A DNA stretch of 64,000 nt from an uncultured Spirochaetota bacterium (GTDB taxonomy: Bacteria > Spirochaetota > Spirochaetia > JAFGXN01). The stretch covers positions 4,732 to 68,731 of the forward strand of contig CALXKN010000007.1 of assembly GCA_944388995.1 (NCBI GenBank), read 5' to 3'. The notes beneath the pieces are model-generated. The model saw nothing but the letters and a program-made list of their open reading frames with translations, had not been told where the DNA came from and searched no databases. How positions within the stretch are numbered: position 1 is the first letter of the stretch; the number at the start of each line of letters is the position of its first letter. Positions 3,501-17,191 of this stretch are shown here, piece after piece. A program made the position numbers and the translations under genes.

Positions 3501-3705
3501 GACTTTAACGACTCTCTTCGGCGTTCTGCCGCTCGCGTTTTCGAAAGGAAACGGAGCAGAGGTATATGCCCCTCTTGGGCAAGCCATTTTCGGTGGTCTG
3601 CTGACCTCAACGCTGATCACCCTTGTCTTAATTCCCATTCTGTACGAAGGACTGGAAATCCGTAAATTACGCCGAATAAAGGCTGAAAATGAGGCCGAAA
3701 AATGA
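583..3705 (+). CDS. RND (AcrB/HAE1-family) efflux transporter permease
   Basis: 1040 aa. N-terminal TM segment followed by a large periplasmic loop, 12-TM architecture, and conserved AcrB-like segments (e.g. GLVVDNSIVVYE, LLGIIALAGVVVNNAIVLVDYIN). Translationally coupled to the upstream adaptor. Confidence 0.9.
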   Translation: MSLPELCIRHKAAVAILTAVAFLAGVLSWRAMNQELIPNISMPTIYIAIPYEGASADQINDKITKILENEFSTMPNLTEMTATNFSGVSLMLLTFDDSIDLYTKILDVREVINQNKSRLPEDIREPIIAFGGATDIPIFSFAIISDSDFEELVRFAEEELIPELSHLHGVAEVEIDGYKRRQVDITLRMDDLSANGVSALEVFGALSTKSVSIPAGYATFQKKTVSLKTVSESADLEEIRNIIVGSANGAPIYLENVADVELRYNEKSRDITTDGKEVIVVSVKRRSDGNAVQIIEESKEILADFRAAKGNSIDFQTLEDDSTMVIDSINSIIESAVLGIVLAILIILLFLRDTRSTIIIGTSIPLSIVCSIICMNAFGISINFLSLCGITVALGMVVDNSIVVYESIFTQRDKGMDAEKSAAEGSRIVGGAILASTTTTACVFIPLLFLGGIAGIFFKDISLTLVFSIIASLVSALTVVPAMCARFLRGENRFKPPRFLTVVSDWVENGLQRLSRFYGNALETALTHRKTVLAFAVLILVISALLISMMGVIFLPPTDYSNIKMEMTVPGSYTFEQSKEKVREVENKIVEIMGEDLMRRVFFVNNERTDNVFFMNAAPITATLFLKPVGEREKGALEWIDELEEVISDEITDCEVVFTNGGLDYLLRYVTGGDKIYSVSIEGNDLDIMYKAAVQIENLMKQDPEIYKTKKSMDLGSKEAVIRLDPDRMGTMGIDSKQAAFTTRILFSRTNVGVFSQNGMLYDMYLSSDYGQKPITPESLENIYIRNMMNGFSALATFSDISFENVATKIDRKDRKNVITITGFADTNDLSGIQSRMDAHLEKMNLPYGVSWQTTGAGKLVQDMLKDVLLALGVAIFLVYAVMVIQFNRFSQPFIILLSIPFCLIGVILGLMIFGSQISLIALLGIIALAGVVVNNAIVLVDYINFLRDEKGMELRPAIIAGCQNRLRPILMTTLTTLFGVLPLAFSKGNGAEVYAPLGQAIFGGLLTSTLITLVLIPILYEGLEIRKLRRIKAENEAEK

Positions 3706-4523
3706 AAAAACACCTTTTTATTCTGCCGCTTTTGACAACCGCGCTTCTCACCGCTTATGCTCAGACACCGTTAAACCGGTTGGATTCACTTTACTTTGAC
3801 GGAGACGTTGAAGCCGCCTCCGTTTATGCCGAAAAAGTTCTGAACGATCCGAATCAAAGCGCTTCTCAGAAAAAAGCGGTCTCCGCTTACTTGGAAATGC
3901 GCCGATTTTTAACGGATACCACTCTCTCCGGACGGGAAAAACGCACCGGATTAGATGCCTGTCTGCTGCTTGCCGAAGAAGCGGCAACAAGCGATCCGGT
4001 TTGTGCAGATGCTTGGTACGCGCGGGCGTTGAACCGCATGTTTGCCGCCAATATGGTTCGGGAATTTTCCTCACTGGAAGCTATTACCGCGGCAAAAGAC
4101 GATTTTATTCGCGCCATCAATGCTGATCCGAATCATTTCGGCAGTCTGGCAGAACTTTCCGGAATTTACGGGCACATGCCCGAACTGATCACTTTCGGCG
4201 ACCGCAGCACAGCGGTCAGCCTTTCCAAGCAACTGTACGCTATCCGCGGAACCAAACGGGACGCTCAGCAACTGGTCTCCCTGCTCCTGCGACGCGATTG
4301 GAGCTTACGCAAACGGGAAAAAGAGCTGCCGTCTCAAGAGAGTGCTTTTGCTGCCGCAAAATCACCGTTTGAAGCGGCCGCCGCCTTTGAAGGCTCGTTC
4401 GAAGCCAAAACGCTTTTCGGAGTACCGACAGATGATCGGACGGAAGCTGTCCGTATTTCCGAGAAATTTCATTTGACCCCGGCCGACACCGACGGCGAAA
4501 AGGCCTGGAGCCGCGACTTTTAA
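3702..4523 (+). CDS. hypothetical secreted alpha-helical protein, translationally coupled to the RND pump (occupies the usual OMF position but is not TolC-like)
   Basis: ATGA overlap with the pump stop. Signal peptide MKKHLFILPLLTTALLTAYAQ. 273 aa, helical/TPR-like composition. No beta-barrel signature. Confidence 0.55.
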   Translation: MKKHLFILPLLTTALLTAYAQTPLNRLDSLYFDGDVEAASVYAEKVLNDPNQSASQKKAVSAYLEMRRFLTDTTLSGREKRTGLDACLLLAEEAATSDPVCADAWYARALNRMFAANMVREFSSLEAITAAKDDFIRAINADPNHFGSLAELSGIYGHMPELITFGDRSTAVSLSKQLYAIRGTKRDAQQLVSLLLRRDWSLRKREKELPSQESAFAAAKSPFEAAAAFEGSFEAKTLFGVPTDDRTEAVRISEKFHLTPADTDGEKAWSRDF

Positions 4524-4569
4524 AGTTATCCTCTTCCGTCTTTTGCGGATTCCGTTCAAAACAAAAAAA

Positions 4570-4591
4570 CTCCGCGGCACCCGCCGCGGAG
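4570..4591. terminator. GC-rich hairpin (CTCCGCGG-cacccg-CCGCGGAG) flanked by an A7 run on the plus side; possible bidirectional or backup terminator between convergent genes
   Basis: Perfect 8-bp stem with 6-nt loop. A-run at 4563-4569 gives a U-tract on the minus strand. There is no immediate T-run on the plus strand. Confidence 0.4.
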
Positions 4592-4783
4592 CAAAAGGAG
4601 GATATACTTTTTGCCATCTGCTTACTGAACTTTCAGCCAGCTGACATTATTACTATAACATATTTCGAGGAAATGTCAATATATTTAACAAAAAATTAAA
4701 ATAAAAAGACTTGTTTTTATTTATTACAAAATCAAAACCGTTCAATTTACGGCAAGGATTCGAAAAACCGAAACGTAAACTCT

Positions 4784-4811
4784 CAAAAAAAGGCGGAGCC
4801 GAAGCTCCGCC
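4784..4811 (-). terminator. rho-independent terminator of the minus-strand lipoprotein gene
   Basis: Stem GGCGGAGC/GCTCCGCC (4792-4799 and 4804-4811) with loop CGAA, followed on the minus strand by a U7 tract (plus A7 at 4785-4791). Lies 10 nt downstream of the stop at 4821. Confidence 0.7.
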
Positions 4812-4820
4812 GATATGCGA

Positions 4821-5261
4821 TTAATTCAAATCGATTTTTTCCATTTTTTGTCCCCGATATTTCAGGGATTTAATGTTGACCGGCAAAGACAGCGCCGCGT
4901 TGATCTCCAAATCCGTTGAAGCATACAGCCAGTGTTCTTTGACGACGCCCGATTCGACAACCAGATAAGAGAGCCCCATCATGTTGTCGCCTTCCATCCG
5001 GACAATGATTTGACGCCGCTCTCCGTCGAAACCGATTCCCAGCTGCCAATTCTCGGCATCAATGAACTGCGTCCCTTCTACAAGATCATAGGCATATTCA
5101 TTTCCGCCGTCAAAAACGATTTTCTCATCGTCGATGGAAAACTTAATTTGTTTGTCCGACGAATCCGTCAATACGTATTTCCCTTCACCGAAATTGTTTT
5201 CCGTATCGGCGCATCCGAAAAACAGCGTTAAACTGACTAAAATGAATCCAAATTTCCTCAT
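4821..5261 (-). CDS. hypothetical lipoprotein
   Basis: Signal peptide with lipobox-like LFFGCADT. 146 aa. Last gene of the CsgG-like cluster. Confidence 0.6.
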   Translation of the reverse strand: MRKFGFILVSLTLFFGCADTENNFGEGKYVLTDSSDKQIKFSIDDEKIVFDGGNEYAYDLVEGTQFIDAENWQLGIGFDGERRQIIVRMEGDNMMGLSYLVVESGVVKEHWLYASTDLEINAALSLPVNIKSLKYRGQKMEKIDLN

Positions 5262-5272
5262 TCTGATACTCC

Positions 5273-6163
5273 TTATTTCATTTGTTTTTCAAGGCGTTTG
5301 ATTTGAGAAGCGGACAGCGAATCTCCCGCGCGGCGGCAAATGTATCCGGCTTCAATCACGGCATCTTTATAGGCTTTGAATTTACTTCCCGAAGGAACCG
5401 CGCACTTGGCAACCGATCCGGCAACTTCACCGACAGCCGCAACGGCGACCAACTCTTCCGCTTTTCCTAAAGACTGATTCGTGTAAGGATCGAAAATTTC
5501 CTCGCCCTGTTTGTAAATATTGATCAATTCTCCGACGGAAAATCCGACATTGGAAATGGTGATAATTCCGTTTGAAACCGACAGTACCAAAGGAGGATAA
5601 ACGCTTTCAATGATTTCCGCTGTCAGCTTATTGGAAAGCGTTTCCATGGCAACGGCAATCACATCATTCGCCGCTTTGGTTCCGCCGCCGGCAACGGTCG
5701 CCACCGTTTTGTCGCCTTCAAAAGTCTCCCTGATGTTCTCTTGAATCACAATCCGTCCGTCATTGACATCCAAAAATTTTAATTCCAGTCCGATGGTGAC
5801 CAGATCCTGTGTCGATCCGCCCAGTCCCAAGACACTGACCTCTTTGGAATCTTTTGAAAAATCAACGATTTTCGCCGTCAGCAAAAAGTCCAAACCGCTC
5901 ATCTGCGTCAGACTGCCCAACTGAGTCAGACTTTCCTGCATGATGCTGTCGATATCGCCGACATTCCGCGTGATGACCGTGAAGCGGTTGCTTTTCACCA
6001 ATGCGGCAGAGAGATACGACTCCAGCTTTTGGGCGGCTTCTTTCGCATCGGCGTTTTCGACAACCACTTTAACGGTATCCAGACCGATAACGGGCTTTCT
6101 TTCCTGTGCAAAAACGCCCAAAACACATCCGATCATCAAAAAAACAAACAAACTTCTCTTCAT
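5273..6163 (-). CDS. CsgG-like secreted lipoprotein, paralog 1
   Basis: Start chosen at MKRSLFVFL (ATG 6161-6163) with AGGAGG 8 nt upstream. Signal peptide with a Cys at residue 14. Shares architecture with the upstream paralog (ALVKSNRF..., DFLLTA, NDGRIV, C-terminal beta-rich module). Confidence 0.5.
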   Translation of the reverse strand: MKRSLFVFLMIGCVLGVFAQERKPVIGLDTVKVVVENADAKEAAQKLESYLSAALVKSNRFTVITRNVGDIDSIMQESLTQLGSLTQMSGLDFLLTAKIVDFSKDSKEVSVLGLGGSTQDLVTIGLELKFLDVNDGRIVIQENIRETFEGDKTVATVAGGGTKAANDVIAVAMETLSNKLTAEIIESVYPPLVLSVSNGIITISNVGFSVGELINIYKQGEEIFDPYTNQSLGKAEELVAVAAVGEVAGSVAKCAVPSGSKFKAYKDAVIEAGYICRRAGDSLSASQIKRLEKQMK

Positions 6164-6192
6164 TCCTTCAACCTCCTGATTTGCTTTGTTTG

Positions 6193-7146
6193 TCAATATC
6201 CGAAGCGGGAACCCAATGCGTCCCGTTTCTTTTTCTCTTCATTGGTGATGTACTCCTGCTCATCATTCAAAGAAATTTTCTGACAGGAAAACCCTTCGTA
6301 AACATTGCCAGCATCCCCCTCCACCACCTCGGCAAAAGACTCTGTCGGACGCACCGTCGTGATTCTGACGCGAGCCACTTCATCGAATCCCAAATCGTTC
6401 AATTCGGCCATCTCTCCTTCAGGGAAAATTTTATAAATCTGTCCCTCTTCGATAAAACCAGCCCCGTAATTGATTTTAACGGAATCGCCGCTGACAGCCG
6501 TCACTTTAACCGGGTCAATCGCATTGGCGACCAAAAATCCGACTTGCAGCGCCGCTTTTCTCAGAACATCAGCAATGTAATTCTGTGAAGTTGACGCGCT
6601 GGCATAATTCTTGGTAGCGACAGGAGCCGCAATTTTTTGCTCCATATCAACAAATTCCGACATGACGATCCGTCCCGTCTGAGCGTCAATCAATTTGAAC
6701 GAGGCTCCGAAACGGAATGTTTTTGTTTCCTGAGAGTAACCTCTCGTCTTGATAATATTGGTATCGATCCCTGCCGTATCGACGGTCCCCGTCAGCAGAA
6801 AATGCACGCCTTTTAACTGCCCCGACTGCGCGGCCGTCTCCGGGTCGATCAATCCGGCGGCGCCCATTCCCTGTTCCTGAAGAAGAGCGTCCAAGCGGGA
6901 GCGTTCCAAACATTCAAAGCGTCTGGTCTTTACCAATGCGGTCGAGACCATATCAAGAAAAGAATCCATGGTAAACTGTGTTTCCGTCGGAACTTCTCCG
7001 AAAATCGTTTCCATATTGCCGACGGCATACGCCTTGTTTTCAAATTCGGCAAACCCGATTCGGATTCTTTCTTCCGGCTCTTCCTGTGAAAAGGCAGCAA
7101 AAGACAAAAAGAAAAGGCAAATACAAACGGCTGATTTTTTTCTCAT
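6193..7146 (-). CDS. CsgG-family (curli-assembly CsgG-like) lipoprotein, paralog 2
   Basis: Signal peptide with Cys. Motif string FAEFENK...TALVKTRRFECLERSRLDALLQEQ...SGQLKGVHFLLTGTV matches the CsgG-family pattern (F.VlER..L..ll.EQ...G..yLL.G.V). Confidence 0.55.
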   Translation of the reverse strand: MRKKSAVCICLFFLSFAAFSQEEPEERIRIGFAEFENKAYAVGNMETIFGEVPTETQFTMDSFLDMVSTALVKTRRFECLERSRLDALLQEQGMGAAGLIDPETAAQSGQLKGVHFLLTGTVDTAGIDTNIIKTRGYSQETKTFRFGASFKLIDAQTGRIVMSEFVDMEQKIAAPVATKNYASASTSQNYIADVLRKAALQVGFLVANAIDPVKVTAVSGDSVKINYGAGFIEEGQIYKIFPEGEMAELNDLGFDEVARVRITTVRPTESFAEVVEGDAGNVYEGFSCQKISLNDEQEYITNEEKKKRDALGSRFGY

Positions 7147-7171
7147 AAAGCACTCCTAAAAAAGATAGTGC

Positions 7172-7198
7172 ATTATAAAAAAAAAAAAAAAGAGTCAA
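7172..7198 (-). promoter_or_regulatory. sigma70-like promoter of the CsgG-like operon: -35 TTGACT, 15-nt spacer that is essentially a T15 homopolymer, -10 TATAAT
   Basis: Minus-strand read: TTGACT (7198-7193), T-tract (plus A15 at 7177-7191, first A shared with the -10), TATAAT (7177-7172). AGGAG RBS at 7153-7157 and ATG at 7146. Confidence 0.5.
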
Positions 7199-7216
7199 CG
7201 GTTTTTCCGGTAAAAG

Positions 7217-7240
7217 AAATTTTTTATAAAAAAATTTCAG
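7217..7240. promoter_or_regulatory. AT-rich near-perfect palindrome GAAATTTTTTATAAAAAAATTTC upstream of the -35 (possible UP element or regulator site)
   Basis: 23-nt inverted repeat with a one-base asymmetry, about 20 nt upstream of the -35 element. Confidence 0.3.
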
Positions 7241-7460
7241 AAAACAAACAATCCGTTCTGCGGTAAAATTGTCCGTCCGCAGGAAAAAAAGACAAAATAC
7301 CGGAAAAGATCGTTTACGGAGACGCTTACGCCGGAACCGGGAGTACGGACCGTGTAAAAAGGAACCCGGAGTTTCTCAGGGGAGACAGAGAAGCCCTGAC
7401 AGGAAGGTTTTAAGAACCGCTTCAAATTATTTTGAAACGGAGACGGCAGCCTCGTGTCTT

Positions 7461-7811
7461 CTATCGGACAAGAGGAAAGGTCTTTGTAAAGCCGCGGTTG
7501 GCAATGCCACCGATGTTGAAAACCGAGGTATACCCGGCGGCCTTCAGCCGGCGGACAGCCGCCGCCGCACGCGCGCCGCTGTGACAGTAAACAAAAACCG
7601 GCGCGTTTTTATCGGGAAGCGCTGCCTCAATTTTTTCATCGGGACAACCGGAGGGGAGCAGCAACGCGCCTTTAACGTGACCTTCTTCAAATTCCCCCGG
7701 AGTGCGGACGTCGGCAATGACGCTGCGAGAATCGGCGGCTATCCGCGACGCGGCCGCCTCCGGAAGCAAATTCACCCCGCCGTTAAAAAAACCGAACAAA
7801 CTCATCTTCAC
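7461..7811 (-). CDS. single-domain rhodanese-like sulfurtransferase
   Basis: Active-site loop VYCHSGARA (Cys-X-S-G-X-R). 116 aa. Confidence 0.8.
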   Translation of the reverse strand: MKMSLFGFFNGGVNLLPEAAASRIAADSRSVIADVRTPGEFEEGHVKGALLLPSGCPDEKIEAALPDKNAPVFVYCHSGARAAAAVRRLKAAGYTSVFNIGGIANRGFTKTFPLVR

Positions 7812-7913
7812 CTCCGAACAGACTGAAATCAGACGCCGCGCCGGATAAAATCAAGCCGGCCCCATGGCAACGCCCCCGCGGATAACCGCCGAGGAGGGCG
7901 GAAGGAACGGCGG

Positions 7914-8891
7914 TTAATCAGCCGCCGCTCGGAAAAAATTTTCAAGCGGTTTAAGAAGATTGCCAAGAGCATAACGACTGACAGCGTATTCGCGGTCGCT
8001 GCCGTCCGGCGCGACTCCGAAACGATCCTCTCCCGCAGACTCCGAAGAAACGCACAGCGTCTGCCTGCTGCCGTCGCGGAAACCGAGACTAACGGTTACG
8101 GCGGCCGTCTCGGGCGTCAGTCCGGACGGCGGAACAATCAGATCGGCTCCGCGTAATTCGGTAATTTGACGCAAAAACGAATCGACCTTCACGGTGTCAA
8201 GCGTTTCATCGTGTCCTTCCGCCTTCCAAACCAAACTTCCGTCCGGTCCGCCGGCGGTTTTGATTAACGTATAATCAAATGTCTCCCCGTCCGTCGGAGA
8301 AGTGCCTTTAACAACAACCGACTGAATCTCCGCGCTGACCGACGGATCGTCAAAAAGCGCAAGTTCCACCCAATGGGAACGGCGGGTGTAAAGATCCCAG
8401 CCCGGATCGTCGGTTTCGTAAACAACGGAATCCCCTTCCGCCCGCACATAGCGCCCGCCGCCGTCCGCTGCTTTTCCGATCAGCAGATGCCACTCTCCGG
8501 CATCGGCCGCCGTCATCCGGACAGAAATCTCCGGCGCGCCGTCGGCAACACCGAAATCGCCGTAGCGCTCTTCATTCGAAGTGATTTTCTTTCCCCTCGG
8601 CAAACCGGCAACGGTTTCAAGAAATTCCGCGACGGCGTCTTCGTCGGCCTCCGCGGCTGTTCCGTCGTAATCGACCCTCTGCGAACCGTCGGAAACGGCG
8701 ACCGAGACGGTCTGACCGTCTCCCTGAACCGTAACCGCGGTGATTTTATCCTTCGGGAAACGGGGCAGCAGCGGTCCGCTTTGTTCGCGCCCGCTGCGGT
8801 TACCGGCGGAAAAAACCGTTCCGATAATTAAAGTCAAAGTAAAAAACACGCACAGCGCCGCCGTAACGGCGATCTTTTTACGGTCGTTCAT
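7914..8891 (-). CDS. DUF4340-like protein (fourth gene of the ABC/GldG cassette)
   Basis: Start taken at MNDRKK (ATG 8889-8891), overlapping the GldG-like stop (ATGA). N-terminal TM anchor. Position downstream of the GldG-like gene matches the conserved four-gene cassette. Confidence 0.55.
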   Translation of the reverse strand: MNDRKKIAVTAALCVFFTLTLIIGTVFSAGNRSGREQSGPLLPRFPKDKITAVTVQGDGQTVSVAVSDGSQRVDYDGTAAEADEDAVAEFLETVAGLPRGKKITSNEERYGDFGVADGAPEISVRMTAADAGEWHLLIGKAADGGGRYVRAEGDSVVYETDDPGWDLYTRRSHWVELALFDDPSVSAEIQSVVVKGTSPTDGETFDYTLIKTAGGPDGSLVWKAEGHDETLDTVKVDSFLRQITELRGADLIVPPSGLTPETAAVTVSLGFRDGSRQTLCVSSESAGEDRFGVAPDGSDREYAVSRYALGNLLKPLENFFRAAAD

Positions 8892-10522
8892 CGACTGCCT
8901 CCTTTCCCCGCTCTCCGCTTGCGCAGGAAGATCCGTACTCCGCCGAAAACAATGATGCACAGCGGAACCACCGCCAGCACAAAAACCTGGACAAAAATAA
9001 AATAGGCGCGGCGCGCTTCGGGATCCTGAATTTGATCCAACTGCGTATTGCGCTGGACGCGGGTGCGCAACTGCAGCAGATCTTCGTCCGCTGTTAGCCA
9101 TTCGACGGCATTCTGAATAAACGTAAAATTCTGATCCAGATTAATGCTGAATAAGTTGTATAACTGAACCGTCATCTGATTCTGCTGATCGATAACAGCG
9201 AAATCGCTGTCGCCGACCGCCAAAATCCGCCCGACAGACGACGATTCGCTCAACGGCTGCGGAAATTCGCTCTCTTCTCCCGGCCGTTCGGGAAGCGCCT
9301 TTCCTTTAAAGTAACTGTCGAATTCACCGGACAAAGCGGCGGCAACGGAATAGGAATCGCGCAGCTGATTTTCGGCACCGGCCGCCATAATCACCGCCTG
9401 ATCGAAGTCGATTCCGCTGTCAAGACCTGCCGTCCATGCCCCGCCCGTCGTCTGAACCAAAGTCAGCGCATTCACCTTTCCGTTGTCCGCAACCGCCTCG
9501 GTCAATGTCAGCGGAGAGGCCCACAGCAGATTCAGCCCGTTAAACGAGGCGGTTACCGGATGGTTGCGGTTCCCTCCTGTTCCCGGAATTTTGACGAAAT
9601 ACGGATACTGAACAATCGAAAACGCCCTGCCGGTCGGCATCAGCGCCGCATTGCAGGAAGTATCAAGCAGCAGCTCTTCTTCAACGCGGATTCCGCACGC
9701 CTCCAGCCAATCGGAGACAGCGGAGCCGGAAACGGCCGAACCGCTCATCCCGTAAGGCGACAGCTGCGTTTGATGGCGGTCGACAAGCATTAAAAGCGCC
9801 CCGCCCCGAAGAAGATACTGATCGAGAACCAACTGCTGGTAAGCGCTTGCGGTTTCTCCGATAACAACCACCGCATTGAAGGAGGAGTCGATTTTCCGTT
9901 CCGGCTCGATCACCTCCACGGTGTACAGCGCACCGAGAACCTGATTCAGCAGAGCCAGCTGATTGTCAGCCGTCAGGCCGGGCGTCAGCGGCAGCAGGCC
10001 GATTTTCCGCTCCTCTTTGTAAACCAACTCCTTGATACGGCGGTCCAAATCGTACTCCAATGTCTCCGTCTGCGTTACCGCCGGAATCACGCTCTGCTCT
10101 CCCATGTACGAAAGAATCAATCCGGAATACGCCACCGACCGGGAAAATTCCGTAACGTTGTTTTCGCTGATCTGCAGCGGCATCAGCCCTTTCTGCGCCA
10201 GCTCCTGGGAAGCGCCGAGTTTATCGGAGTCGATCACTTCCACCGAAATCTTCCCTTTTGAAACCGACGCGTACTCGCGGACGGTATCTTCGATTTCACC
10301 AAAAACCGGCACCCGGTCTTTCAGCTTCGAGGAGAGATAATAAGTAATGTTGAGATGTTCGGGAATTTCCCGCACCGTCTGTTTTGTGACGGAAGAAAGC
10401 GAATAAGCCCGCGAAAAGGTCAGATCCGCCCGAAAACCGTAAACAAGACTGTTCAGCCCGATCAGAAGAATCAACAGAACGGTGAGAACGGTCAGCAGAA
10501 TTTGATTTTGCTTCATTTTCAT
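8888..10522 (-). CDS. GldG-like ABC-transporter auxiliary component
   Basis: 544 aa with an N-terminal TM, a large extracytoplasmic region and a C-terminal TM (YFIFVQVFVLAVVPLCIIVFGG). Immediately follows the ABC-2 permease. Confidence 0.7.
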   Translation of the reverse strand: MKMKQNQILLTVLTVLLILLIGLNSLVYGFRADLTFSRAYSLSSVTKQTVREIPEHLNITYYLSSKLKDRVPVFGEIEDTVREYASVSKGKISVEVIDSDKLGASQELAQKGLMPLQISENNVTEFSRSVAYSGLILSYMGEQSVIPAVTQTETLEYDLDRRIKELVYKEERKIGLLPLTPGLTADNQLALLNQVLGALYTVEVIEPERKIDSSFNAVVVIGETASAYQQLVLDQYLLRGGALLMLVDRHQTQLSPYGMSGSAVSGSAVSDWLEACGIRVEEELLLDTSCNAALMPTGRAFSIVQYPYFVKIPGTGGNRNHPVTASFNGLNLLWASPLTLTEAVADNGKVNALTLVQTTGGAWTAGLDSGIDFDQAVIMAAGAENQLRDSYSVAAALSGEFDSYFKGKALPERPGEESEFPQPLSESSSVGRILAVGDSDFAVIDQQNQMTVQLYNLFSINLDQNFTFIQNAVEWLTADEDLLQLRTRVQRNTQLDQIQDPEARRAYFIFVQVFVLAVVPLCIIVFGGVRIFLRKRRAGKGGSR

Positions 10523-10532
10523 CTCCGCCCTC

Positions 10533-11273
10533 CTATTTCCATTTCTTTAAGATCAAAACGCGGACGTTCAGGTAAAGAAAAAGCGCCGTCATTCCGAGGA
10601 AGTAGATCAAATCTCGGGAATCAAGGATTCCTTTTTTGAAGCTCTCGAAATGATGAGTCGCAAACAGCGTATTAATGACGCGGGCAACGGCGTCCGGCAC
10701 GCCGATCATCAGCGGAAAATAACCGCTGAGCACCAAAAACGCCAGCGCCAGAACCGAAACGAGAAAAGCGCTGATTTGATTGGATGAGAGCGCCGAAAAG
10801 AACATTCCTACGGCAATGCAGAGAGCGCCGAAAAGCGCCGTTCCCAAATACTGCCCGATCAGCTCACCGGGTTCAAAACGGCCGGTAAACGAAACCAAAA
10901 ACGGAACAAACACCGTCAGGGCAATCATAATCAGAAACAAAACGAAGGCGCCGAAAAACTTTCCGAGAACCAGCTGCGCCTCGCTGAACGGCAGCGTCAG
11001 CAGGATTTCATCGGATTTCATCTTCTTCTCTTCCGCCCACAAACGCATTGTCAGCGCCGGAATCACGATGATGAACAGAAACGGGAATGAGGAGAAATAA
11101 GCGCGGAAGGAAGCGTAATTCATCGTGAAAAACCCGTTAAACAGGAAAAACCACACCGCGGAGGCCGTCAGAAACACAACAAATACGATGCAGGCAATCG
11201 GTGAATTGAAATAAGTCTTCAGTTCTTTTTTCACAATCGGTCGAATGGTATCGCGCATCTCAAACTCCTTCAT
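10533..11273 (-). CDS. ABC-2 family transporter permease (GldF-like)
   Basis: 246 aa, six predicted TM helices. Overlaps the ATPase gene by 14 nt. Confidence 0.75.
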   Translation of the reverse strand: MKEFEMRDTIRPIVKKELKTYFNSPIACIVFVVFLTASAVWFFLFNGFFTMNYASFRAYFSSFPFLFIIVIPALTMRLWAEEKKMKSDEILLTLPFSEAQLVLGKFFGAFVLFLIMIALTVFVPFLVSFTGRFEPGELIGQYLGTALFGALCIAVGMFFSALSSNQISAFLVSVLALAFLVLSGYFPLMIGVPDAVARVINTLFATHHFESFKKGILDSRDLIYFLGMTALFLYLNVRVLILKKWK

Positions 11274-12192
11274 GCGTCAGGCGGATGAAGATGTCTTCCA
11301 GCCCGATTTTTTCCAAATACATCTCGGCGATCCGGTAACGGTTCTTTACCGCCCAATCGAAAATCTCCGCAGCGGCGTTTTCCGAAGTCAGCTGAACGGT
11401 AAAAGCCGCAAAGCCTTCTTTTGTTTCCGCGGGACGCACGGCCGTCACCGCCGCGCACTCTTTCAGCCGTTCCTCAACTCCGCTGCCGTCACCCGCCAAA
11501 ACGAGATGAAGCGTCGGTTCGCCTTTGAGGCTTTTGCCGATCTCTTCGGTTGTTCCTTCGGCGGCAATCAGCCCGTCGTTGACAATCAGCACCCGGTCGC
11601 AGACCGCTTCCACCTCCTGCAGAATGTGGGTGGAGAGCAGAACGGTCTTCTCCTTTCCGATGTTCTTAATCAGATTCCGAATTTCGATAATCTGATTCGG
11701 ATCCAAACCGGTCGTCGGTTCGTCCAGGATGAGAATTTCCGGTTTATGGATAATCGCCTGCGCCAATCCCGTCCGCTGACGGTAACCTTTTGACAGATTG
11801 CCGATTTCCTTATACAAAACGGAAGAGAGACCGCACTCGGCCGCCGTCTCTTCAATCCGCCGTTTCCGTTCCGCCGCGCCGATACCGCGCGCTTCGGCAA
11901 TGAAATTCAGATACTCGTACACATTCAAATCGGTGTAAACCGGAGCCATTTCAGGCAGATAACCGATCTGCCGCTTCACCGCCAACGGATCGCCGACAAC
12001 ATCAAAACCGTTGAGCGCCGCCGTTCCGCCGTCGGGATAGTGATAACAGGTCAGAACCTTCATAACCGTCGTCTTTCCCGCTCCGTTGGGACCGAGCAGT
12101 CCGACAATTTCGCCTTTTCCGATGGAAAAAGAGACTCCTTTGACGGCGGGAAAGGTACCGTAATTTTTCACCAAATCTTTTACTTCAATCAT
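11260..12192 (-). CDS. ABC transporter ATP-binding protein (GldA-like)
   Basis: Walker A GPNGAGKTT, signature LSKGYRQR, Walker B ILILDEPTTGLD. Confidence 0.9.
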   Translation of the reverse strand: MIEVKDLVKNYGTFPAVKGVSFSIGKGEIVGLLGPNGAGKTTVMKVLTCYHYPDGGTAALNGFDVVGDPLAVKRQIGYLPEMAPVYTDLNVYEYLNFIAEARGIGAAERKRRIEETAAECGLSSVLYKEIGNLSKGYRQRTGLAQAIIHKPEILILDEPTTGLDPNQIIEIRNLIKNIGKEKTVLLSTHILQEVEAVCDRVLIVNDGLIAAEGTTEEIGKSLKGEPTLHLVLAGDGSGVEERLKECAAVTAVRPAETKEGFAAFTVQLTSENAAAEIFDWAVKNRYRIAEMYLEKIGLEDIFIRLTHEGV

Positions 12193-12233
12193 AGAAACGC
12201 ATTTTCCCTCTCTCGATTTTATACTTTTATTTA

Positions 12234-12268
12234 AAACAAAAAAACAACCGGTTCGTTACATTTAACCG
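12234..12268 (-). terminator. weak putative terminator or attenuator downstream of rnz
   Basis: 5-bp stem CGGTT/AACCG with 10-nt loop overlapping the rnz stop, followed on the minus strand by UGUUUUUUUGUUUU. Confidence 0.3.
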
Positions 12269-13200
12269 CTGTTTTTTACGGAAAGGCTCATTCCGTCCTT
12301 TGTCAAAAACGTTTGCGGAAAAACGGCTTTGGCTTCGTTTAAAAGCTGCTGTAAATCGCGGTTGGTAAACCGCGGCGAATAGTGAATCAAACCCATTTGT
12401 CCGATTCCGCCGGCTTCGGCGGCGATTTGAGCCGCCTGCACCGCCGTCAGATGTTTTTTTTCGGCGGCGCTTTCTGCCAAATCCGCGGTAAACATTCCTT
12501 CGCAGATAAAAAGATCCGAACCGCTCACTTCTCCGGCGATTGTCGGCAGATACGCCGTATCGGTCACAAAAGAAAAACGGCAGCCGCGGCGCGGCGGTCC
12601 GAGCACCTCTTCCGGCTTCACCGGCCGGGAACGGAGACCGACGACCGTTTCGCCCCGCTGCAGATGCGACCAAAGCGGACCGCGCGGCACTCCGGCGGCT
12701 TCGGCTTTCGCGGGGTCAAAAACCCCCGGACGGGGATCTTCAACAAGTTTGTACCCGACGCAAACCTTCGAATGGTTGAGCGGAAACGAGTAAACCGAAA
12801 AATCGTCGCCGCGGAACACTTCCCCGGGAACCGAAGGATCGGAGATCTCCTTAACGATGATTTCGTAGTTGATATACATATCCAAAACGCGGCGGCTGGT
12901 TTCGACGTACTCTTTGATCTTCGGCGGTCCGACAATGATCAGAGGTTCGTCGCGGTCAACCTGAGCCGAAAGCATCAGCAATCCGGGAATGCCGGTGATG
13001 TGGTCGGCGTGCGTATGTGAAACAAAAACGGCCGACACCTTCTTCCATTTGAGATTGAGAGAGCGCAGCGAAATCTGTGTTCCTTCCCCGCAGTCAAAGA
13101 GAAAAAGCGAACCTTCGCGGCGCAGCAGAACGCTGGTCAAAAACCGGTTGGGAAGCGGCATCATCCCGCCGGTTCCGAGAACAAAAACTTCAAAACTCAT
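12262..13200 (-). CDS. rnz: ribonuclease Z (metallo-beta-lactamase fold tRNA 3' endonuclease)
   Basis: HxHxDH motif VSHTHADHITG. About 310 aa, typical short-form RNase Z layout. Confidence 0.8.
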   Translation of the reverse strand: MSFEVFVLGTGGMMPLPNRFLTSVLLRREGSLFLFDCGEGTQISLRSLNLKWKKVSAVFVSHTHADHITGIPGLLMLSAQVDRDEPLIIVGPPKIKEYVETSRRVLDMYINYEIIVKEISDPSVPGEVFRGDDFSVYSFPLNHSKVCVGYKLVEDPRPGVFDPAKAEAAGVPRGPLWSHLQRGETVVGLRSRPVKPEEVLGPPRRGCRFSFVTDTAYLPTIAGEVSGSDLFICEGMFTADLAESAAEKKHLTAVQAAQIAAEAGGIGQMGLIHYSPRFTNRDLQQLLNEAKAVFPQTFLTKDGMSLSVKNSG

Positions 13201-15667
13201 AGACCGTCTGCTCCTGCCGCGTTTCGTTTTCCGTTTTGACGGCGGTCACCCGGAAAACGGTCTGCCCTTTCACCCGCCGGCATTCAAAAGCGGCCGCCTC
13301 CGGATGCGTCAAAATCTCCGTTGCCAACGGATCTTCGATTTGAGAACGCAGGGCGCGGCGCATCGTTCTTGCCCCGTAAGCGGGATCGAATCCGGTCTTC
13401 ACCAATTCATCGCGGACAGCCGCGTCGATTTTCAGGCGGATGCCGATATTTTTCATCCGTCCGATGACTTCCCGGCAGAGCAGATCGACGATTTCGCGGA
13501 TCTGCGGCTCTTTCAGGGAGTCGAACACGACGATTTCATCCAGCCGGTTGATAAATTCCGGTGACAGAAAGCGTTTGGCCTCCGCCGTCGCCGACTGTTT
13601 GATTTCAGCGTAACTTTTCCATCCCTTTTCAGCCGAAAAACCCAACCGGCCGCCTTTGTTCAGATCCTTCGAACCGAGATTACTCGTCATGATGATAACG
13701 GCGTTGCGAAACGATACTTTATGCCCGAGACTGTCGACCAATTCGCCCTCCTCCAGCACCTGCAGCAGCAGATGAAAAACATCGGGATGGGCTTTTTCGA
13801 TTTCGTCCAGCAAAACAACGCAGTACGGACGCCTGCGCACCGCTCCGGAAAGAAGACCTCCGTCTTCGAATCCGACGTATCCGGGAGGCGCTCCGACCAA
13901 TTTGGAGACGTTGTGTTTTTCCATATAATCGGACATATCGACGCGGATCAACGCTTCCGGACTGCCGAAGAGCTTCTCGGCCAATGTCTTTGCCAGATAG
14001 GTTTTTCCGACGCCGGTCGGTCCCAAAAAGAGAAACGATCCGGAGGGGCGCCGCTCCGAAGCCAAACCGACGCGGGAACGGCGGATCGCGGAAGAGAGCG
14101 CCGCCACGGCCGCCTCCTGACCGATGACGGTACGGTTGAGCTCCTCTTCTAAATGCAGCAGACGGAGGGTTTCACTCTCGGCTAATTTTTCGGCAGGAAT
14201 TCCGGCGGCAACAGAGACGACGCGCAGAATATCGTCGGCTGTGACAACGCTGCGCTGCTCCGCATTCCGGTTCCGCCACTGGGCTTCAGCCGCCGCCTTT
14301 TCCGATTCCAGGCGCCGGACGGCGTCCCGCTCCTTTGCCGCCTCTTCGAAACACTGCCGGCCGACAAAAGCGGTTTTTTTCGCATTTCGGGCGCGGATTT
14401 TCTCTTCCAGTTTGAGAATTTCGGCCGGTTTCTCACTGCGTTCAATCCGTTTTTCGGCGCCGGCTTCGTCAATCAAATCAATCGCTTTGTCGGGCTGAAA
14501 ACGCTCGGTCAGATAACGGTTCGACGCGGAAACAGCCGTCTCAATCGCCTCCCGGGTATAGACGACGCGGTGGTGTTCGCCGTAGCGGCGGACAATTCCG
14601 AAGAGGATTTCCCGCGTCATTGCTTCGTCCGGTTCCTCAACGTAAATATTTTGAAACCGGCGGACCAAGGCGGCGTCGTTTTCAATCCGGCGGCGGTATT
14701 CTTTAACGGTTGTCGCTCCGATACACCTGAAATCGCCGCGGCTGAGAGGCGGTTTCAGGATATTGGCGGCGTCGATGGCTCCTTCCGAACCGCCGGCTCC
14801 GACAATGGTGTGAATTTCGTCGATAAAAAGAATGATGTTGCTGCGCTCCGTTACGATTTGAATCAGCTTCTTCAGCCGGTCTTCGAATTCCCCGCGGTAC
14901 TTCGTGCCGGCTACGACCGATCCCATATCCACCCGAAGAATTCTTTTATCCTCAAGTCCGTCGGGAACCGTTCCGGCCGCAATCCGCTGCGCCAAACCCT
15001 CTACCAGCGCAGTCTTTCCGACCCCCGGTTCCCCAAGCAGCAGCGGGTTGTTTTTACGCCGCCGGCTTAAAATCTTCATCATGCGTTCGATTTCTTTTTC
15101 GCGGCCGATAATCGGATCACAATCACCGGCAGCCGCCTGCGCAACCATGTCTTTCGTATACAAAGAGAGAAATTCGTTTTTCCGATTCTCTTCCTCAAGT
15201 TCCTTCGGCGTTCTGACCCGTTCAGAGCTCTCTTTTTTTGCCGCGGAAGGAAAAAAAAGACGGCCGTCCGCGATGAAGGGGCGGCACGGCGAATCTTCCG
15301 CTTCGGCTGCCGTCCGGAAAAGAAAAAGCACATCTCCGCAAAACCCCTCGGGCGCCGAAGAAATTTTTTCGGAGAGCCGCGCAAGAAAACCGGCATACCG
15401 CCGGGACGGCTGCGGCAGAAAAGACCGTTCTTCCCCCGCGGCGGTCTGCGCCACCGACTTTTTCAACTCTTCGGTCAGCTTCTGACGCGAACGGTCGGAA
15501 TCGAAACACTCCCGCGGCTTATACTTTTCCAAAACCGCCAGAAGCAAATGTTCGGGTTCGATCGATTTCGCGGCGAAACGGACGGCGGTTTCCCGAACCC
15601 CGTTGAGCAGCAGCTGCTCGGCGTCGTAATTCAGTCTTTGAGACACAAAACCTCCGATTTTCCGCAA
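13190..15667 (-). CDS. clpC: ClpC/ClpA-type Hsp100 AAA+ ATPase (two AAA modules, ClpP-interaction loop present)
   Basis: Clp N-domain. D1 Walker A GEPGVGKTA and Walker B ILFIDEIH. D2 Walker A GPTGVGKTY and Walker B VVLLDEIEKAH. GRLGFSAE loop (ClpP-binding (V/I)GF-type). Exact start ambiguous because it overlaps mcsB by 37 nt. Confidence 0.85.
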   Translation of the reverse strand: MRKIGGFVSQRLNYDAEQLLLNGVRETAVRFAAKSIEPEHLLLAVLEKYKPRECFDSDRSRQKLTEELKKSVAQTAAGEERSFLPQPSRRYAGFLARLSEKISSAPEGFCGDVLFLFRTAAEAEDSPCRPFIADGRLFFPSAAKKESSERVRTPKELEEENRKNEFLSLYTKDMVAQAAAGDCDPIIGREKEIERMMKILSRRRKNNPLLLGEPGVGKTALVEGLAQRIAAGTVPDGLEDKRILRVDMGSVVAGTKYRGEFEDRLKKLIQIVTERSNIILFIDEIHTIVGAGGSEGAIDAANILKPPLSRGDFRCIGATTVKEYRRRIENDAALVRRFQNIYVEEPDEAMTREILFGIVRRYGEHHRVVYTREAIETAVSASNRYLTERFQPDKAIDLIDEAGAEKRIERSEKPAEILKLEEKIRARNAKKTAFVGRQCFEEAAKERDAVRRLESEKAAAEAQWRNRNAEQRSVVTADDILRVVSVAAGIPAEKLAESETLRLLHLEEELNRTVIGQEAAVAALSSAIRRSRVGLASERRPSGSFLFLGPTGVGKTYLAKTLAEKLFGSPEALIRVDMSDYMEKHNVSKLVGAPPGYVGFEDGGLLSGAVRRRPYCVVLLDEIEKAHPDVFHLLLQVLEEGELVDSLGHKVSFRNAVIIMTSNLGSKDLNKGGRLGFSAEKGWKSYAEIKQSATAEAKRFLSPEFINRLDEIVVFDSLKEPQIREIVDLLCREVIGRMKNIGIRLKIDAAVRDELVKTGFDPAYGARTMRRALRSQIEDPLATEILTHPEAAAFECRRVKGQTVFRVTAVKTENETRQEQTVYEF

Positions 15668-16698
15668 AAAATATCTTTTAAAACCCGCGCGCGCAAATGG
15701 TCGCAGAGAAGCGGCTCGCCGCTATCCGGAAACTGCCGGCGGAAACGGTTCAGTGAACTCTCCTTTAAAAAATCAAAGAGACGGTTGAGTGTCGAACAGG
15801 AGAAATCGGCCGCTCCGGCAAGAACGGCAGTCCGGATAATGTCCAAAAGCCGGTAAGACTCCGAAAGGGTCATTTTTACCGAGGAATGAATCCGCTCCAA
15901 CGCATCGCGGTAACGGCTGTTGATTTGTTCTATCTGTTCCGGCTTCCACTCCCTCCGTTTCAGCCGTTCCATTTTGACAATGGTACTCAAATTTTTCGCA
16001 AACCGCTCAAGCATCCGGGTTTCCGGTTCGCCGTCCGACGCAACGGAGGTTACCGTCAAAACACCGGGAACGGTTTCCTTGAGATCCGGACACAGATACG
16101 GCTCGATTTTCAGATTCTCGGCAGCCGCGATTTTCAGCAGCCGGTTTCCTTCGTCGGTTTGGTTCAGCGCCGGAAGGGAGAGCAGAACCTCGGCCTCGAT
16201 TCCCGCTCCCGTCAGATCCAAGCGGCCGTTCAGGTATCCGTACCGCAATGAAACCGCATAAGGAAAGACCGTTTCCAGCCGGCGGTCGCATCCGATGACG
16301 GCTACCGCCGCGTGAAACAGTTCAAATTCGGGAACGACCGCCCTCAACTCGATTTGTTCCCGGTTCAAAAAAAGCAGCGCCGCGGCGTTGTCGTACAGAT
16401 AAAAAGACGCCGGCACCGCCAGACGGCCGTAGTCGCCGGGAAGGATTCCCCGGTCGCGGTAATAATCAAAATTCGCTCCGACTGCTTTTTCCGCGCGGAA
16501 AAGATTCCGCTGTGATTCGGGCAGATGCGACAGGCGCTCTTTCACGCGGGTCATAAAGCGGTGGGAATCCGCCGCCGACATCTTCTCCGGGAACGGAAAA
16601 TCCGCCATACTGCGGAACAGGGAAACGCGGGAACGGATCACGCAGTCGCCGAAAGAGACAAATTCCCTGTCCCGTGAAACATCAATTTCTTCATTCAT
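15631..16698 (-). CDS. mcsB: McsB-like protein (protein arginine kinase family); catalytic motifs look degenerate
   Basis: N-terminal VIRSRVSLFRSMADFPFPE matches the McsB VLSSRIRLARNF..FPT block. Colinear similarity across the domain. Sits between mcsA and clpC. Expected CPTN(V)GTGLRAS reads NGRLDLTGAGIEAE and NEEDH reads NREQIE. Confidence 0.65.
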   Translation of the reverse strand: MNEEIDVSRDREFVSFGDCVIRSRVSLFRSMADFPFPEKMSAADSHRFMTRVKERLSHLPESQRNLFRAEKAVGANFDYYRDRGILPGDYGRLAVPASFYLYDNAAALLFLNREQIELRAVVPEFELFHAAVAVIGCDRRLETVFPYAVSLRYGYLNGRLDLTGAGIEAEVLLSLPALNQTDEGNRLLKIAAAENLKIEPYLCPDLKETVPGVLTVTSVASDGEPETRMLERFAKNLSTIVKMERLKRREWKPEQIEQINSRYRDALERIHSSVKMTLSESYRLLDIIRTAVLAGAADFSCSTLNRLFDFLKESSLNRFRRQFPDSGEPLLCDHLRARVLKDIFCGKSEVLCLKD

Positions 16699-17191
16699 AA
16701 CGCAAAATCTCTTGCTTTTGTTCGATTTCCTCTTTCAGTCGCTGCGCTTCGGCGTAATCCTCCGCCTCAACGGCAGCCTGCAGACGTTTTTTCTGATCGG
16801 GGATTTCCTCCAGCATCGTCCTGTAAATTTCCATCGACCGGGGAATCCGACCTGAATAAATTTTATCATGAAAACGGCTGTCGTTCAACTCTTTTTCAAA
16901 AGTCCCGTAACATTGCGGACAGCCGGCAGTCTCTTTTTTCAGAAGCAGACTCAAAGCCGTTCCGCAGCGGGGACAGTAAACGGCGCGCCCGTTGGGCGGA
17001 TACGGCGGCTCTTTCATCGATCCGACGGCACGGAAAATCGTATCCAGAACCTTTTCCAGCTGCGGATTCTTTTGATCGATCCCCCGCTCCGCCGCGCAGG
17101 AAGAGCACAGATTCAAATCGGTTGTCTGATTGCCGCGTGTCTGTTTGATGTGGATGACCGCATCGTTTTTTTTACAAATATCGCACTTCAT
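16691..17191 (-). CDS. mcsA: McsA-like zinc-finger / UVR-domain activator protein
   Basis: CDIC...CSSC and CPRC...CPQC zinc-finger pairs plus a C-terminal UVR-like helix (EAEDYAEAQRLKEEIEQ). 166 aa. Directly upstream of mcsB. Confidence 0.7.
   Translation of the reverse strand: MKCDICKKNDAVIHIKQTRGNQTTDLNLCSSCAAERGIDQKNPQLEKVLDTIFRAVGSMKEPPYPPNGRAVYCPRCGTALSLLLKKETAGCPQCYGTFEKELNDSRFHDKIYSGRIPRSMEIYRTMLEEIPDQKKRLQAAVEAEDYAEAQRLKEEIEQKQEILRYE

Follow-up and report, generated by a model that had tools for sequence, protein, structure and literature searches.

The subject of this study is a three-gene operon in a 64,000-nt stretch of DNA (the window) from contig CALXKN010000007.1 of an uncultured gut spirochaete. 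Two of its genes, called A and B here, encode paralogous exported proteins, and the third, C, encodes a small lipoprotein. The operon is read from a promoter with a homopolymer in its spacer and lies in a block of unusually low diversity. The features, with positions counted from the first letter of the window, are:

7172 to 7198, minus strand: sigma-70-type promoter, with the -35 TTGACT at 7198-7193, a 15-nt spacer of C plus T14, and the -10 TATAAT at 7177-7172.
6193 to 7146, minus strand: gene A, 317 aa.
5273 to 6163, minus strand: gene B, paralog of A, 296 aa.
4821 to 5261, minus strand: gene C, small lipoprotein, 146 aa.
4792 to 4811, minus strand: intrinsic terminator with an 8-bp GC-rich stem, a TTCG loop and a T7 tail.
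4563 to 7487: low-diversity block, containing the promoter region, A-B-C, the terminator and the downstream intergenic region.

An earlier note on this DNA had proposed a single operon at 4821-7146, closed by a strong terminator. Both proposals stood: the three open reading frames (ORFs) are co-directional and closely packed on the minus strand, the coordinates hold, and the terminator, which reads GGCGGAGC-TTCG-GCTCCGCC-T7 from 4811 to 4792, is kept in the two nearest species, L010 and L011. An AGGAG lies before gene A at 7157-7153, the 29-nt gap between A and B includes AGGAGG, and the 11-nt gap between B and C includes GGAG. The start of B is the ATG at 6163 and not the TTG at 6196, in agreement with P0011 and all orthologs. 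Promoter, A, B, C and terminator make up a true operon. An Rfam scan of 4300-7600 reached no gathering score, no further A/B paralogs were found within the 64-kb window, and PADLOC and PHROGs scans gave no credible match, so that a known defence system or a phage origin is unsupported.

A scan of genome contigs with a single protein found nothing, and relatives were recovered by a profile scan of genome contigs seeded with a 6-sequence alignment. The relatives are metagenome-assembled genomes that carry the label Spirochaetia or Treponema sp. and come from human gut, the caecum of water deer and the like. The loci from other species (L001-L005 and L010-L020) represent about a dozen species, with some loci repeating a species or contig. 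In every spirochaete locus fetched from other species, A is followed directly by B on the same strand; the flanking genes are unrelated and vary from species to species. Synteny, which the earlier note had put forward as a check on its proposal, was thus conserved for the A-B pair in all fetched species and did not extend to C, which was present in only three. The two genes A and B form a module on their own in these uncultured, Treponema-like gut spirochaetes.

The promoter tract is the strongest signal in the region. A T15 run at 7177-7191 lies between the -35 and -10 elements of a promoter reading TTGACT-C-T14-TATAAT (7198-7172), and no other homopolymer in the window reaches 11 A/T or 8 G/C. 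The tract upstream of A is likewise the only such run in most related loci and one of two in the others. A homopolymer of T9-T17 or G9 was found at the same place in every other species recovered except L017, in which the -35/-10 spacer has no tract. It is placed between a TTGAC[AT] -35 and a -10-like hexamer, with spacers of about 13-19 nt, most of them 15-17 nt. The promoters of the other species read:

L010: TTGACT-T14-A-TATAAT
L011: GTGACA-GAGCC-T8-TATAAT
L001-3, L012, L013, L015 and L016: TTGACA-[AG]-T14-16-TACAxx
L004 and L020: TTGACA-ATTCG-T11-TATAAT
L014: TTGACA-AAGGAGTAC-G9-TAAACT
L018 and L019: TTGACT-TTTTAC-G9-TATAAT
L005: TTGACA-AATTGAC-G9-TGATAGACT

Because some lineages carry poly-T and others poly-G, it appears that the homopolymer itself is maintained, and not AT-richness. 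The tract is also polymorphic within the window species. Among 14 independent contigs it was T15 in four, T16 in seven, T18 in one and about 50 nt in two, these lengths being those of the assembly consensus, in which slippage is not separable from homopolymer sequencing error. The spacer is 15 nt in the T15 contigs, as in the window, and 16 nt in the T16 contigs; the T18 contig, L006, has T16 plus an A>T change in the -10. Tract states were intermixed with respect to the distances between strains in flanking single-nucleotide polymorphisms (SNPs). The strains nearest by flanking SNPs paired L007 (T15) with L026 (T16), L038 (T15) with L009 (long), and L027 (T16) with L008 (long).

Previous work on Treponema pallidum showed that a poly-G tract between the -35 and -10 of tp0126 phase-varies experimentally, with an optimum of 17 nt, and the same spacer arrangement has been implicated for the tpr genes (PMC7864442). 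The present promoter resembles those of tp0126, tprE/G/J and tprL, and of Neisseria porA/opc, in that a homopolymer lies between the -35 and -10, its length puts the spacer near or off 17 nt, and it is polymorphic between strains. It differs in that the tract here is a poly-T of 15-17 nt, which is unusual for Treponema, poly-G being the described case; moreover, the same operon has poly-T or poly-G depending on the species, and the products are not classical outer-membrane beta-barrels. Given the sole long homopolymer in the window, the spacer tract across species and the length polymorphism among conspecific contigs, the promoter looks phase-variable, as had been suspected from the sequence of this stretch.

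A separate question about the promoter is whether the tract is a switch at all. It might be a mere spacer or a curved-DNA element whose length differences are assembly or sequencing noise, and it is true that most contigs differ by 1 nt (T15 vs T16), that long homopolymers are error-prone in sequencing, and that both very long versions come from scaffolds of one project. An inert tract, however, does not readily account for the lack of any other long homopolymer in 64 kb (and of more than one other in any related locus), for a position that is always between the -35 and -10, for the retention of a homopolymer as poly-T or poly-G by lineage instead of simple AT-richness, or for states scattered over the strain tree, and the same arrangement is phase-variable by experiment in T. 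pallidum tp0126 (PMC7864442). We therefore regard the tract as unlikely to be inert, though the idea keeps some weight.

In one strain the operon carries further changes around the tract. L006 (= L036; 8990-9020) has the -10 TTTAAT instead of TATAAT, and its gene A starts with TTG instead of ATG; in this strain the operon may be tuned down, or locked low, by mutation.

The operon and its flanks also differ sharply in diversity. Over 2.1 kb containing A, B and part of C, 13 of the 14 contigs were compared with the window, one being too short, and they showed 0-9 differences: L034 was identical to the window throughout, and the others had 2-9. The maximum pairwise difference among the 13 was 16. 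For the same contigs, the 1 kb directly upstream, with the rhodanese and DUF4340 genes, showed 43-244 differences, so that divergence between strains is 0.1-0.4% in the cassette and 4-24% in the flanks. In L006-L009, A-B-C differed at 2-5 nucleotides and in no more than one amino acid, whereas the 345-nt rhodanese gene had 62-71 nucleotide and 18-19 amino-acid differences. When the window was compared with L009, the near-identical block ran from 4563 to 7487, with dense differences on either side and 10-25% divergence over the next 9 kb. A near-identical cassette between divergent flanks indicates that a segment from promoter to terminator, and slightly beyond, has recently spread across divergent strain backgrounds. 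Possible causes are a gene-specific sweep and horizontal transfer through recombination, either of which fits a genomic context that shifts between species.

By sequence comparison A and B are paralogs, with 25% identity in BLASTP (E 1e-9) and, when the two family profiles were compared, a probability of 99.3% and an E value of 1.7e-20 over 261 columns; the duplicated pair of the earlier note was thus borne out. In the search for Pfam CsgG (PF03783), which that note had named as a check, both proteins exceeded the gathering cut-off of 20.8 bits, A scoring 62.8 bits over profile positions 4-151 of 210 and B 27.8 bits over positions 34-170. One ortholog is labelled 'CsgG/HfaB family protein' by NCBI. 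These matches assign A and B to the CsgG/TolB-N superfamily, and to that extent the CsgG-family core proposed for them was correct. The blocks F.V.ER..L..LL.EQ and LLTG, once ascribed to both proteins, are exact in A, while B has RFTVITRN...IMQES and FLLTA instead. No member of the family has been characterised so far, as had been supposed.

The main error of the earlier note concerned the signal peptides, which it took for lipoprotein signals in both of the ~300-aa proteins. With cleavage marked by a slash, the signal of A ends ...AFS/QEE (aa 1-20) and that of B ...VFA/QERKP (aa 1-19), and across orthologs the ends read ...F[SA]/Q[ED][ED] for A and ...FA/QE[RE]K[PA]VIGL for B. Many orthologs have no Cys anywhere in the signal peptide, for example L010 and L011 for A and L005 and L018 for B. 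Judged by eye and from conservation, with no signal-peptide predictor, the signals look to be of the signal peptidase I type, so that A and B would be exported by Sec and probably cut by signal peptidase I; they do not look like lipoproteins. With the lipobox, a defining feature of CsgG, HfaB and LpoB is gone.

AlphaFold2 models were built from 29-30-sequence alignments and had a mean predicted local distance difference test score (pLDDT) of 70.5 for A and 73.7 for B. Both models share one layout: an alpha/beta domain with a long beta-hairpin (116-154 in A, 93-132 in B), a long helix, a small beta-barrel and a C-terminal helix. A beta-rich C-terminal module, as predicted earlier, is therefore present in the models of both. 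In A, a CsgG/TolB-N-like domain (about aa 27-210) is followed by a small, finger-less beta-barrel (about aa 212-291) and a charged C-terminal helix; in B, the corresponding domain (about aa 24-188) is followed by a FlgT-C/TsaP-type beta-barrel with a finger (about aa 190-282) and a C-terminal helix. The finger of B, modelled as strands 212-224 and 231-248, bears an invariant DPY..G motif (residues D225, P226, Y227, G233 and E236). A has no barrel finger and ends in RFGY-COOH, which is invariant in alignment A4 and present in all extracted orthologs. The paralogs are asymmetric, the finger being kept in B and lost in A and the RFGY tail being found only in A.

FlgT was the best structural match for both A and B. 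In Foldseek searches A matched FlgT (3W1E/8Z5N) with E 2-3e-15 over about 290 columns and CsgG with E 1e-8, so that FlgT outranks CsgG by seven orders of magnitude as a structural match to A. In sequence searches of the PDB, the A family alone gave only a marginal CsgG match (E 0.08) and the B family alone gave nothing meaningful; only the joint A+B profile reached both CsgG (E 2.6e-7) and the TsaP C-domain (E 2.2e-8 and 7.5e-7), the latter match being to the second C-domain of Pseudomonas aeruginosa TsaP (6VE2 chain O, residues 254-326). A PDB match to Leptospira LEPBI_II0033 (E 0.23) was confined to the signal-peptide region, a literature search on it was empty, and it was dropped. Distant relatives of the pair gave sub-threshold matches to the Pfam FlgT models, P0010 (24.7 bits) and P0007 (19 bits) to FlgT_C, with a cut-off of 27, and P0031 to FlgT_M. 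The Foldseek match to FlgT, the joint-profile matches to TsaP and CsgG and these sub-threshold matches in relatives together argue, from models and sequence, for an architecture in which a CsgG/TolB-N-like domain is joined to a FlgT-C/TsaP-type barrel. In P0010, which covers positions 4-199 of the 210 in the CsgG profile, the glycine-rich hairpins are kept and the same FlgT_C-like barrel is found at the C-terminus, and for this reason the spirochaete A and B look like trimmed derivatives of a CsgG-like ancestor.

The contig with P0007 (L024, 5474-11274) contains a single-copy distant relative of CsgG-like plus FlgT_C-like type. Its cluster includes a PEGA-domain protein, a DUF1425 (YcfL-like) protein and an LpoB-family protein, and may be a different multi-lipoprotein envelope module around the same fold.

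A CsgG/HfaB annotation is routinely read as a 'curli-type secretion pore', and the earlier note had considered an outer-membrane pore. CsgG is a lipoprotein of which nine protomers build a 36-stranded barrel, each contributing four strands (PMC4594475). For A and B, the corresponding proposal would be a homo- or heteromeric CsgG/HfaB-type outer-membrane channel exporting a surface fibre or polymer, with the switch toggling a surface structure. The N-terminal domains are indeed homologous by sequence, as the Pfam scores and the NCBI ortholog name attest. The first transmembrane hairpin of CsgG (TM1) aligns with the long hairpin of A and B, and the turn of B, G-x-G-G-S-T-Q, resembles GIGADTQ of CsgG. 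P0010, moreover, joins a nearly full CsgG profile match to a FlgT_C-like domain, and phase-variable promoters of Treponema typically drive outer-membrane proteins (PMC7864442). The distal half of the TM1-like hairpin is charged, however (IIKTRGYSQETK in A, SKDSKEVS in B), giving a polar hairpin tip. The second hairpin (TM2), which we placed by a CsgG residue numbering that we take to be that of Goyal et al. 2014, corresponds in A and B to a loop of 14-17 aa with pLDDT below 50 (A 173-186, B 154-167), and this loop is mostly deleted in the B orthologs P0024-26. The constriction loop of CsgG, with its Tyr/Asn/Phe, lies between beta1 and alpha1; this region is only about 9 aa in B, and in A it may be a small hairpin, being a 22-aa segment modelled as such with low confidence and with no obvious YxxxNF. 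A and B also differ from CsgG and HfaB in having no lipobox and in carrying the additional C-terminal barrel, and FlgT is a far better structural match. No csgA/B/E/F or hfaA/D-type genes were found in the gene tables of the window species and three other species, and no substrate, accessory or curli-like genes were seen in any locus. By sequence and model, then, A and B depart from a CsgG-type outer-membrane pore in the features that define it, and we judge a secretion channel rather improbable.

The other function suggested for the pair was that of a penicillin-binding protein (PBP) activator. LpoB, which activates PBP1b, is an outer-membrane lipoprotein with a long disordered linker and binds the UB2H domain of that enzyme. 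A and B might, by extension, be LpoB/TolB-N-like periplasmic regulators of a peptidoglycan synthase or hydrolase. The TolB-N-like fold is common to both, Pfam LpoB matches A, though not B, at 30.7 bits against a cut-off of 22.3, and peptidoglycan enzymes (LysM-M23, VanY and SLT-LysM) lie within a few genes of the pair in two species. That linkage was rejected as a consistent signal, being limited to two species and not conserved, with unrelated genes in between. Further, the NCBIfam LpoB equivalog TIGR02722 scored A at only 31.1 bits against a cut-off of 110.55 and did not match B. A and B have neither the lipid anchor nor the disordered linker of LpoB (in the models, the mature N-terminus enters beta1 directly), and LpoB has no FlgT-C barrel. 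A core cell-wall role would also sit oddly with phase variation and horizontal spread. A role of this kind is very improbable. The envelope or secretion module that the earlier note proposed holds up in part, as a so far uncharacterised module of the envelope with CsgG-superfamily proteins and a promoter that looks phase-variable; the tests support neither a pore nor a PBP activator.

Protein C, in keeping with the small lipoprotein first described after the pair, has a conserved lipobox, LFFGC in the window and VFWGC or VFGGC elsewhere. It matched no Pfam or NCBIfam family, and an exhaustive phmmer search of 1.84 billion cluster representatives returned only two relatives. C is found only in the window species and the two closest species, with 62% identity vs about 80% for A and B; by these sequence searches it is an orphan, a lineage-specific accessory outside the conserved core. 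In L013, a 44%-identity species, a 113-aa lipoprotein with the lipobox FLSGC (7517-7913) lies between the promoter, TTGACA-G-T15/16, and A. It was considered as a C homolog, but the match was not significant (E 1.1) and homology is not claimed. Small lipoprotein partners may have been recruited repeatedly.

Of the solved architectures, that of FlgT comes closest, and TsaP is related through its barrel. FlgT, the H-ring protein of the polar flagellum in Vibrio and Aeromonas, has a cleavable Sec signal and is not lipidated, and the Sec-type, non-lipidated signals of A and B are alike in this respect. The order of domains in FlgT, a TolB-N/CsgG-like alpha/beta domain and then the FlgT-C barrel, a small beta-barrel of the F1/FliI N-terminal type, was found in A and B as well. 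The H-ring of the Vibrio motor is built of 26 FlgT subunits, and it is anchored to the outer membrane by FlgP, a small lipoprotein whose C-terminal tail occupies a groove of FlgT (10.64898/2025.12.04.692373). A and B differ from FlgT in that their sequence similarity to it is under the Pfam thresholds, no counterpart of FlgT-N has been demonstrated in them, they are two paralogs instead of one protein, the barrel of A has no finger, they are not encoded with flagellar genes, and their host is a spirochaete with neither L-ring nor H-ring. As to TsaP, the secretin-associated protein of type IV pili (PDB 6VE2 chain O, 3JC8), its CII domain is sequence-related to the A/B-family barrel, including the finger motif 'DP.TG', and a FlgT-C-like barrel with an extruding finger was modelled in B, the finger being lost in A. 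TsaP has an N-terminal LysM domain and two barrels per chain, whereas A and B each have a CsgG-like domain and one barrel; a domain scan found no LysM match in either, and no secretin gene was linked to them in the loci examined. In TsaP the fingers of tandem FlgT-C-like domains chain alternating C domains into a ring around PilQ (10.1101/2020.05.29.123786). This alternating-domain ring serves as the template for an alternating ring of A and B.

The best-supported model, which we hold tentatively and with somewhat less than even confidence, is a periplasmic scaffold of the FlgT/TsaP type, in which A and B, neither of them lipidated, form hetero-oligomers and are expressed stochastically. By analogy with FlgT and TsaP, A and B would co-assemble in alternation into a periplasmic ring or belt, which would sit under the outer membrane or around an envelope-spanning machine, in the way that FlgT encircles the LP-ring of the flagellum and TsaP the PilQ secretin. 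The finger of B and the RFGY tail of A would be the likely inter-subunit contacts. A small lipoprotein, C or the unrelated one in L013, could be an optional outer-membrane tether, as FlgP is for FlgT. The hypermutable homopolymer in the spacer would make transcription stochastic, giving phase or rheostat variation, and the cassette would move between divergent strains by recombination or transfer.

Several points weigh against this scaffold. Oligomerisation, the A-B contact and the target machine are drawn by analogy, and no flagellar, secretin or other machine genes were linked to the pair in any locus examined. Against the Pfam FlgT models, B matched FlgT_M only at E 0.13 (12.9 bits vs 31.2) and A had no match. 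The AlphaFold2 models are moderate (pLDDT 70-74, from 29-30 sequences), and the TM-score to FlgT is low at 0.36, so that the domain orientations differ. Phase variation usually marks surface-exposed products, a poor fit with a purely periplasmic scaffold. As for the switch, 1-nt differences between metagenome assemblies can be sequencing or assembly error, and the 47-57 nt tracts of L008 and L009 may be artefacts. Finally, the low diversity of the cassette could reflect strong constraint together with recombination, and not a sweep.

With FlgT as the closest structural relative, one would also ask whether A and B play the part of FlgT in spirochaetes, as a ring added to the periplasmic flagellar motor, with their phase variation modulating motility. 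FlgT is the top structural match for both proteins, its cleavable, non-lipidated signal is like theirs, and motility genes of Campylobacter and Helicobacter are phase-variable via homopolymers. On the other hand, no flagellar genes, such as flgO/P or motX/Y, were linked in the loci examined, and the pair, found in no more than about a dozen spirochaete species, changes its context from one to the next, which would be unusual for a motor part. To our knowledge, FlgT acts in the context of an L-ring and an H-ring, which spirochaetes do not have. We consider a motor part quite improbable. The scaffold has a bolder form, a new hetero-oligomeric periplasmic FlgT/TsaP-like belt, switched by a homopolymer and traded between strains as a cassette; in full, this is speculative and unlikely to hold, if worth stating. 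Such a belt could be an accessory of the periplasmic flagellar motor, or an envelope gate altering susceptibility to phage or host factors; the switch would then act on part of a periplasmic machine and not on a surface antigen.

The locus is made of known parts, a FlgT/CsgG-fold family and a homopolymer-spacer promoter; the new features are the spacer homopolymer found in this promoter and the low diversity of the cassette against its divergent flanks. For annotation, the routine reading of CsgG/HfaB as a curli-type secretion pore fails here, and the architecture is FlgT/TsaP-like. Three signals of recent selection are combined at the locus: a conserved paralog pair, a maintained poly-T/poly-G spacer, and near-zero diversity against flanks diverging by 4-24%. 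The carrier is an abundant, uncultured gut spirochaete, the exact sequence of protein A being found on 143 contigs. Should the scaffold model be true, treponemal phase variation would extend past T. pallidum and its outer-membrane proteins to commensal treponemes of the gut, and the locus would point to a new envelope structure relevant to life in the gut. The paralog pair, the hypermutable spacer and the near-clonal cassette together make the operon worth experimental follow-up.

Other features of the window lie close to the operon. Inside the low-diversity block, a strong minus-strand terminator (4592-4569) lies about 60 nt beyond an orphan promoter of near-consensus sequence, TTGACA-16-TATAGT (4679-4652), which has a TG extension. 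From its sequence, the segment 4569-4679 could encode a small RNA of about 80 nt with a CCUCC motif; it is not kept in the two nearest species, L010 and L011, and no Rfam family matched it. Upstream of the operon, the minus strand of 7914-16700 encodes an ATP:guanido phosphotransferase (McsB-like), a ClpC-like AAA+ protein, a protein of the metallo-beta-lactamase (MBL) fold, an ATP-binding cassette (ABC) ATPase, an ABC-2 permease, a GldG-like ABC_transp_aux protein, a DUF4340 protein and a rhodanese. This is a conserved block with an ABC/GldG-type envelope transporter that adjoins the cassette and is unlinked to A-B in other species.

On the other side of the operon, a plus-strand gene at 3702-4523 encodes an exported protein of 273 aa that matched neither a Pfam nor an NCBIfam family. 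The gene overlaps at its start (ATGA at 3702-3705) with the stop codon of a gene for a 1040-aa resistance-nodulation-division (RND) pump of AcrB-like type, and its product may work with this efflux pump as a periplasmic or outer-membrane component not yet characterised. The RND pump gene is broken in L009 (12459-15300), a divergent strain: about 370 nt of window sequence (window ~2586-2955) are replaced, a fragment of 181 aa and an ORF of 92 aa stand in its place, and in the lineage of L009 the gene has probably become a pseudogene.

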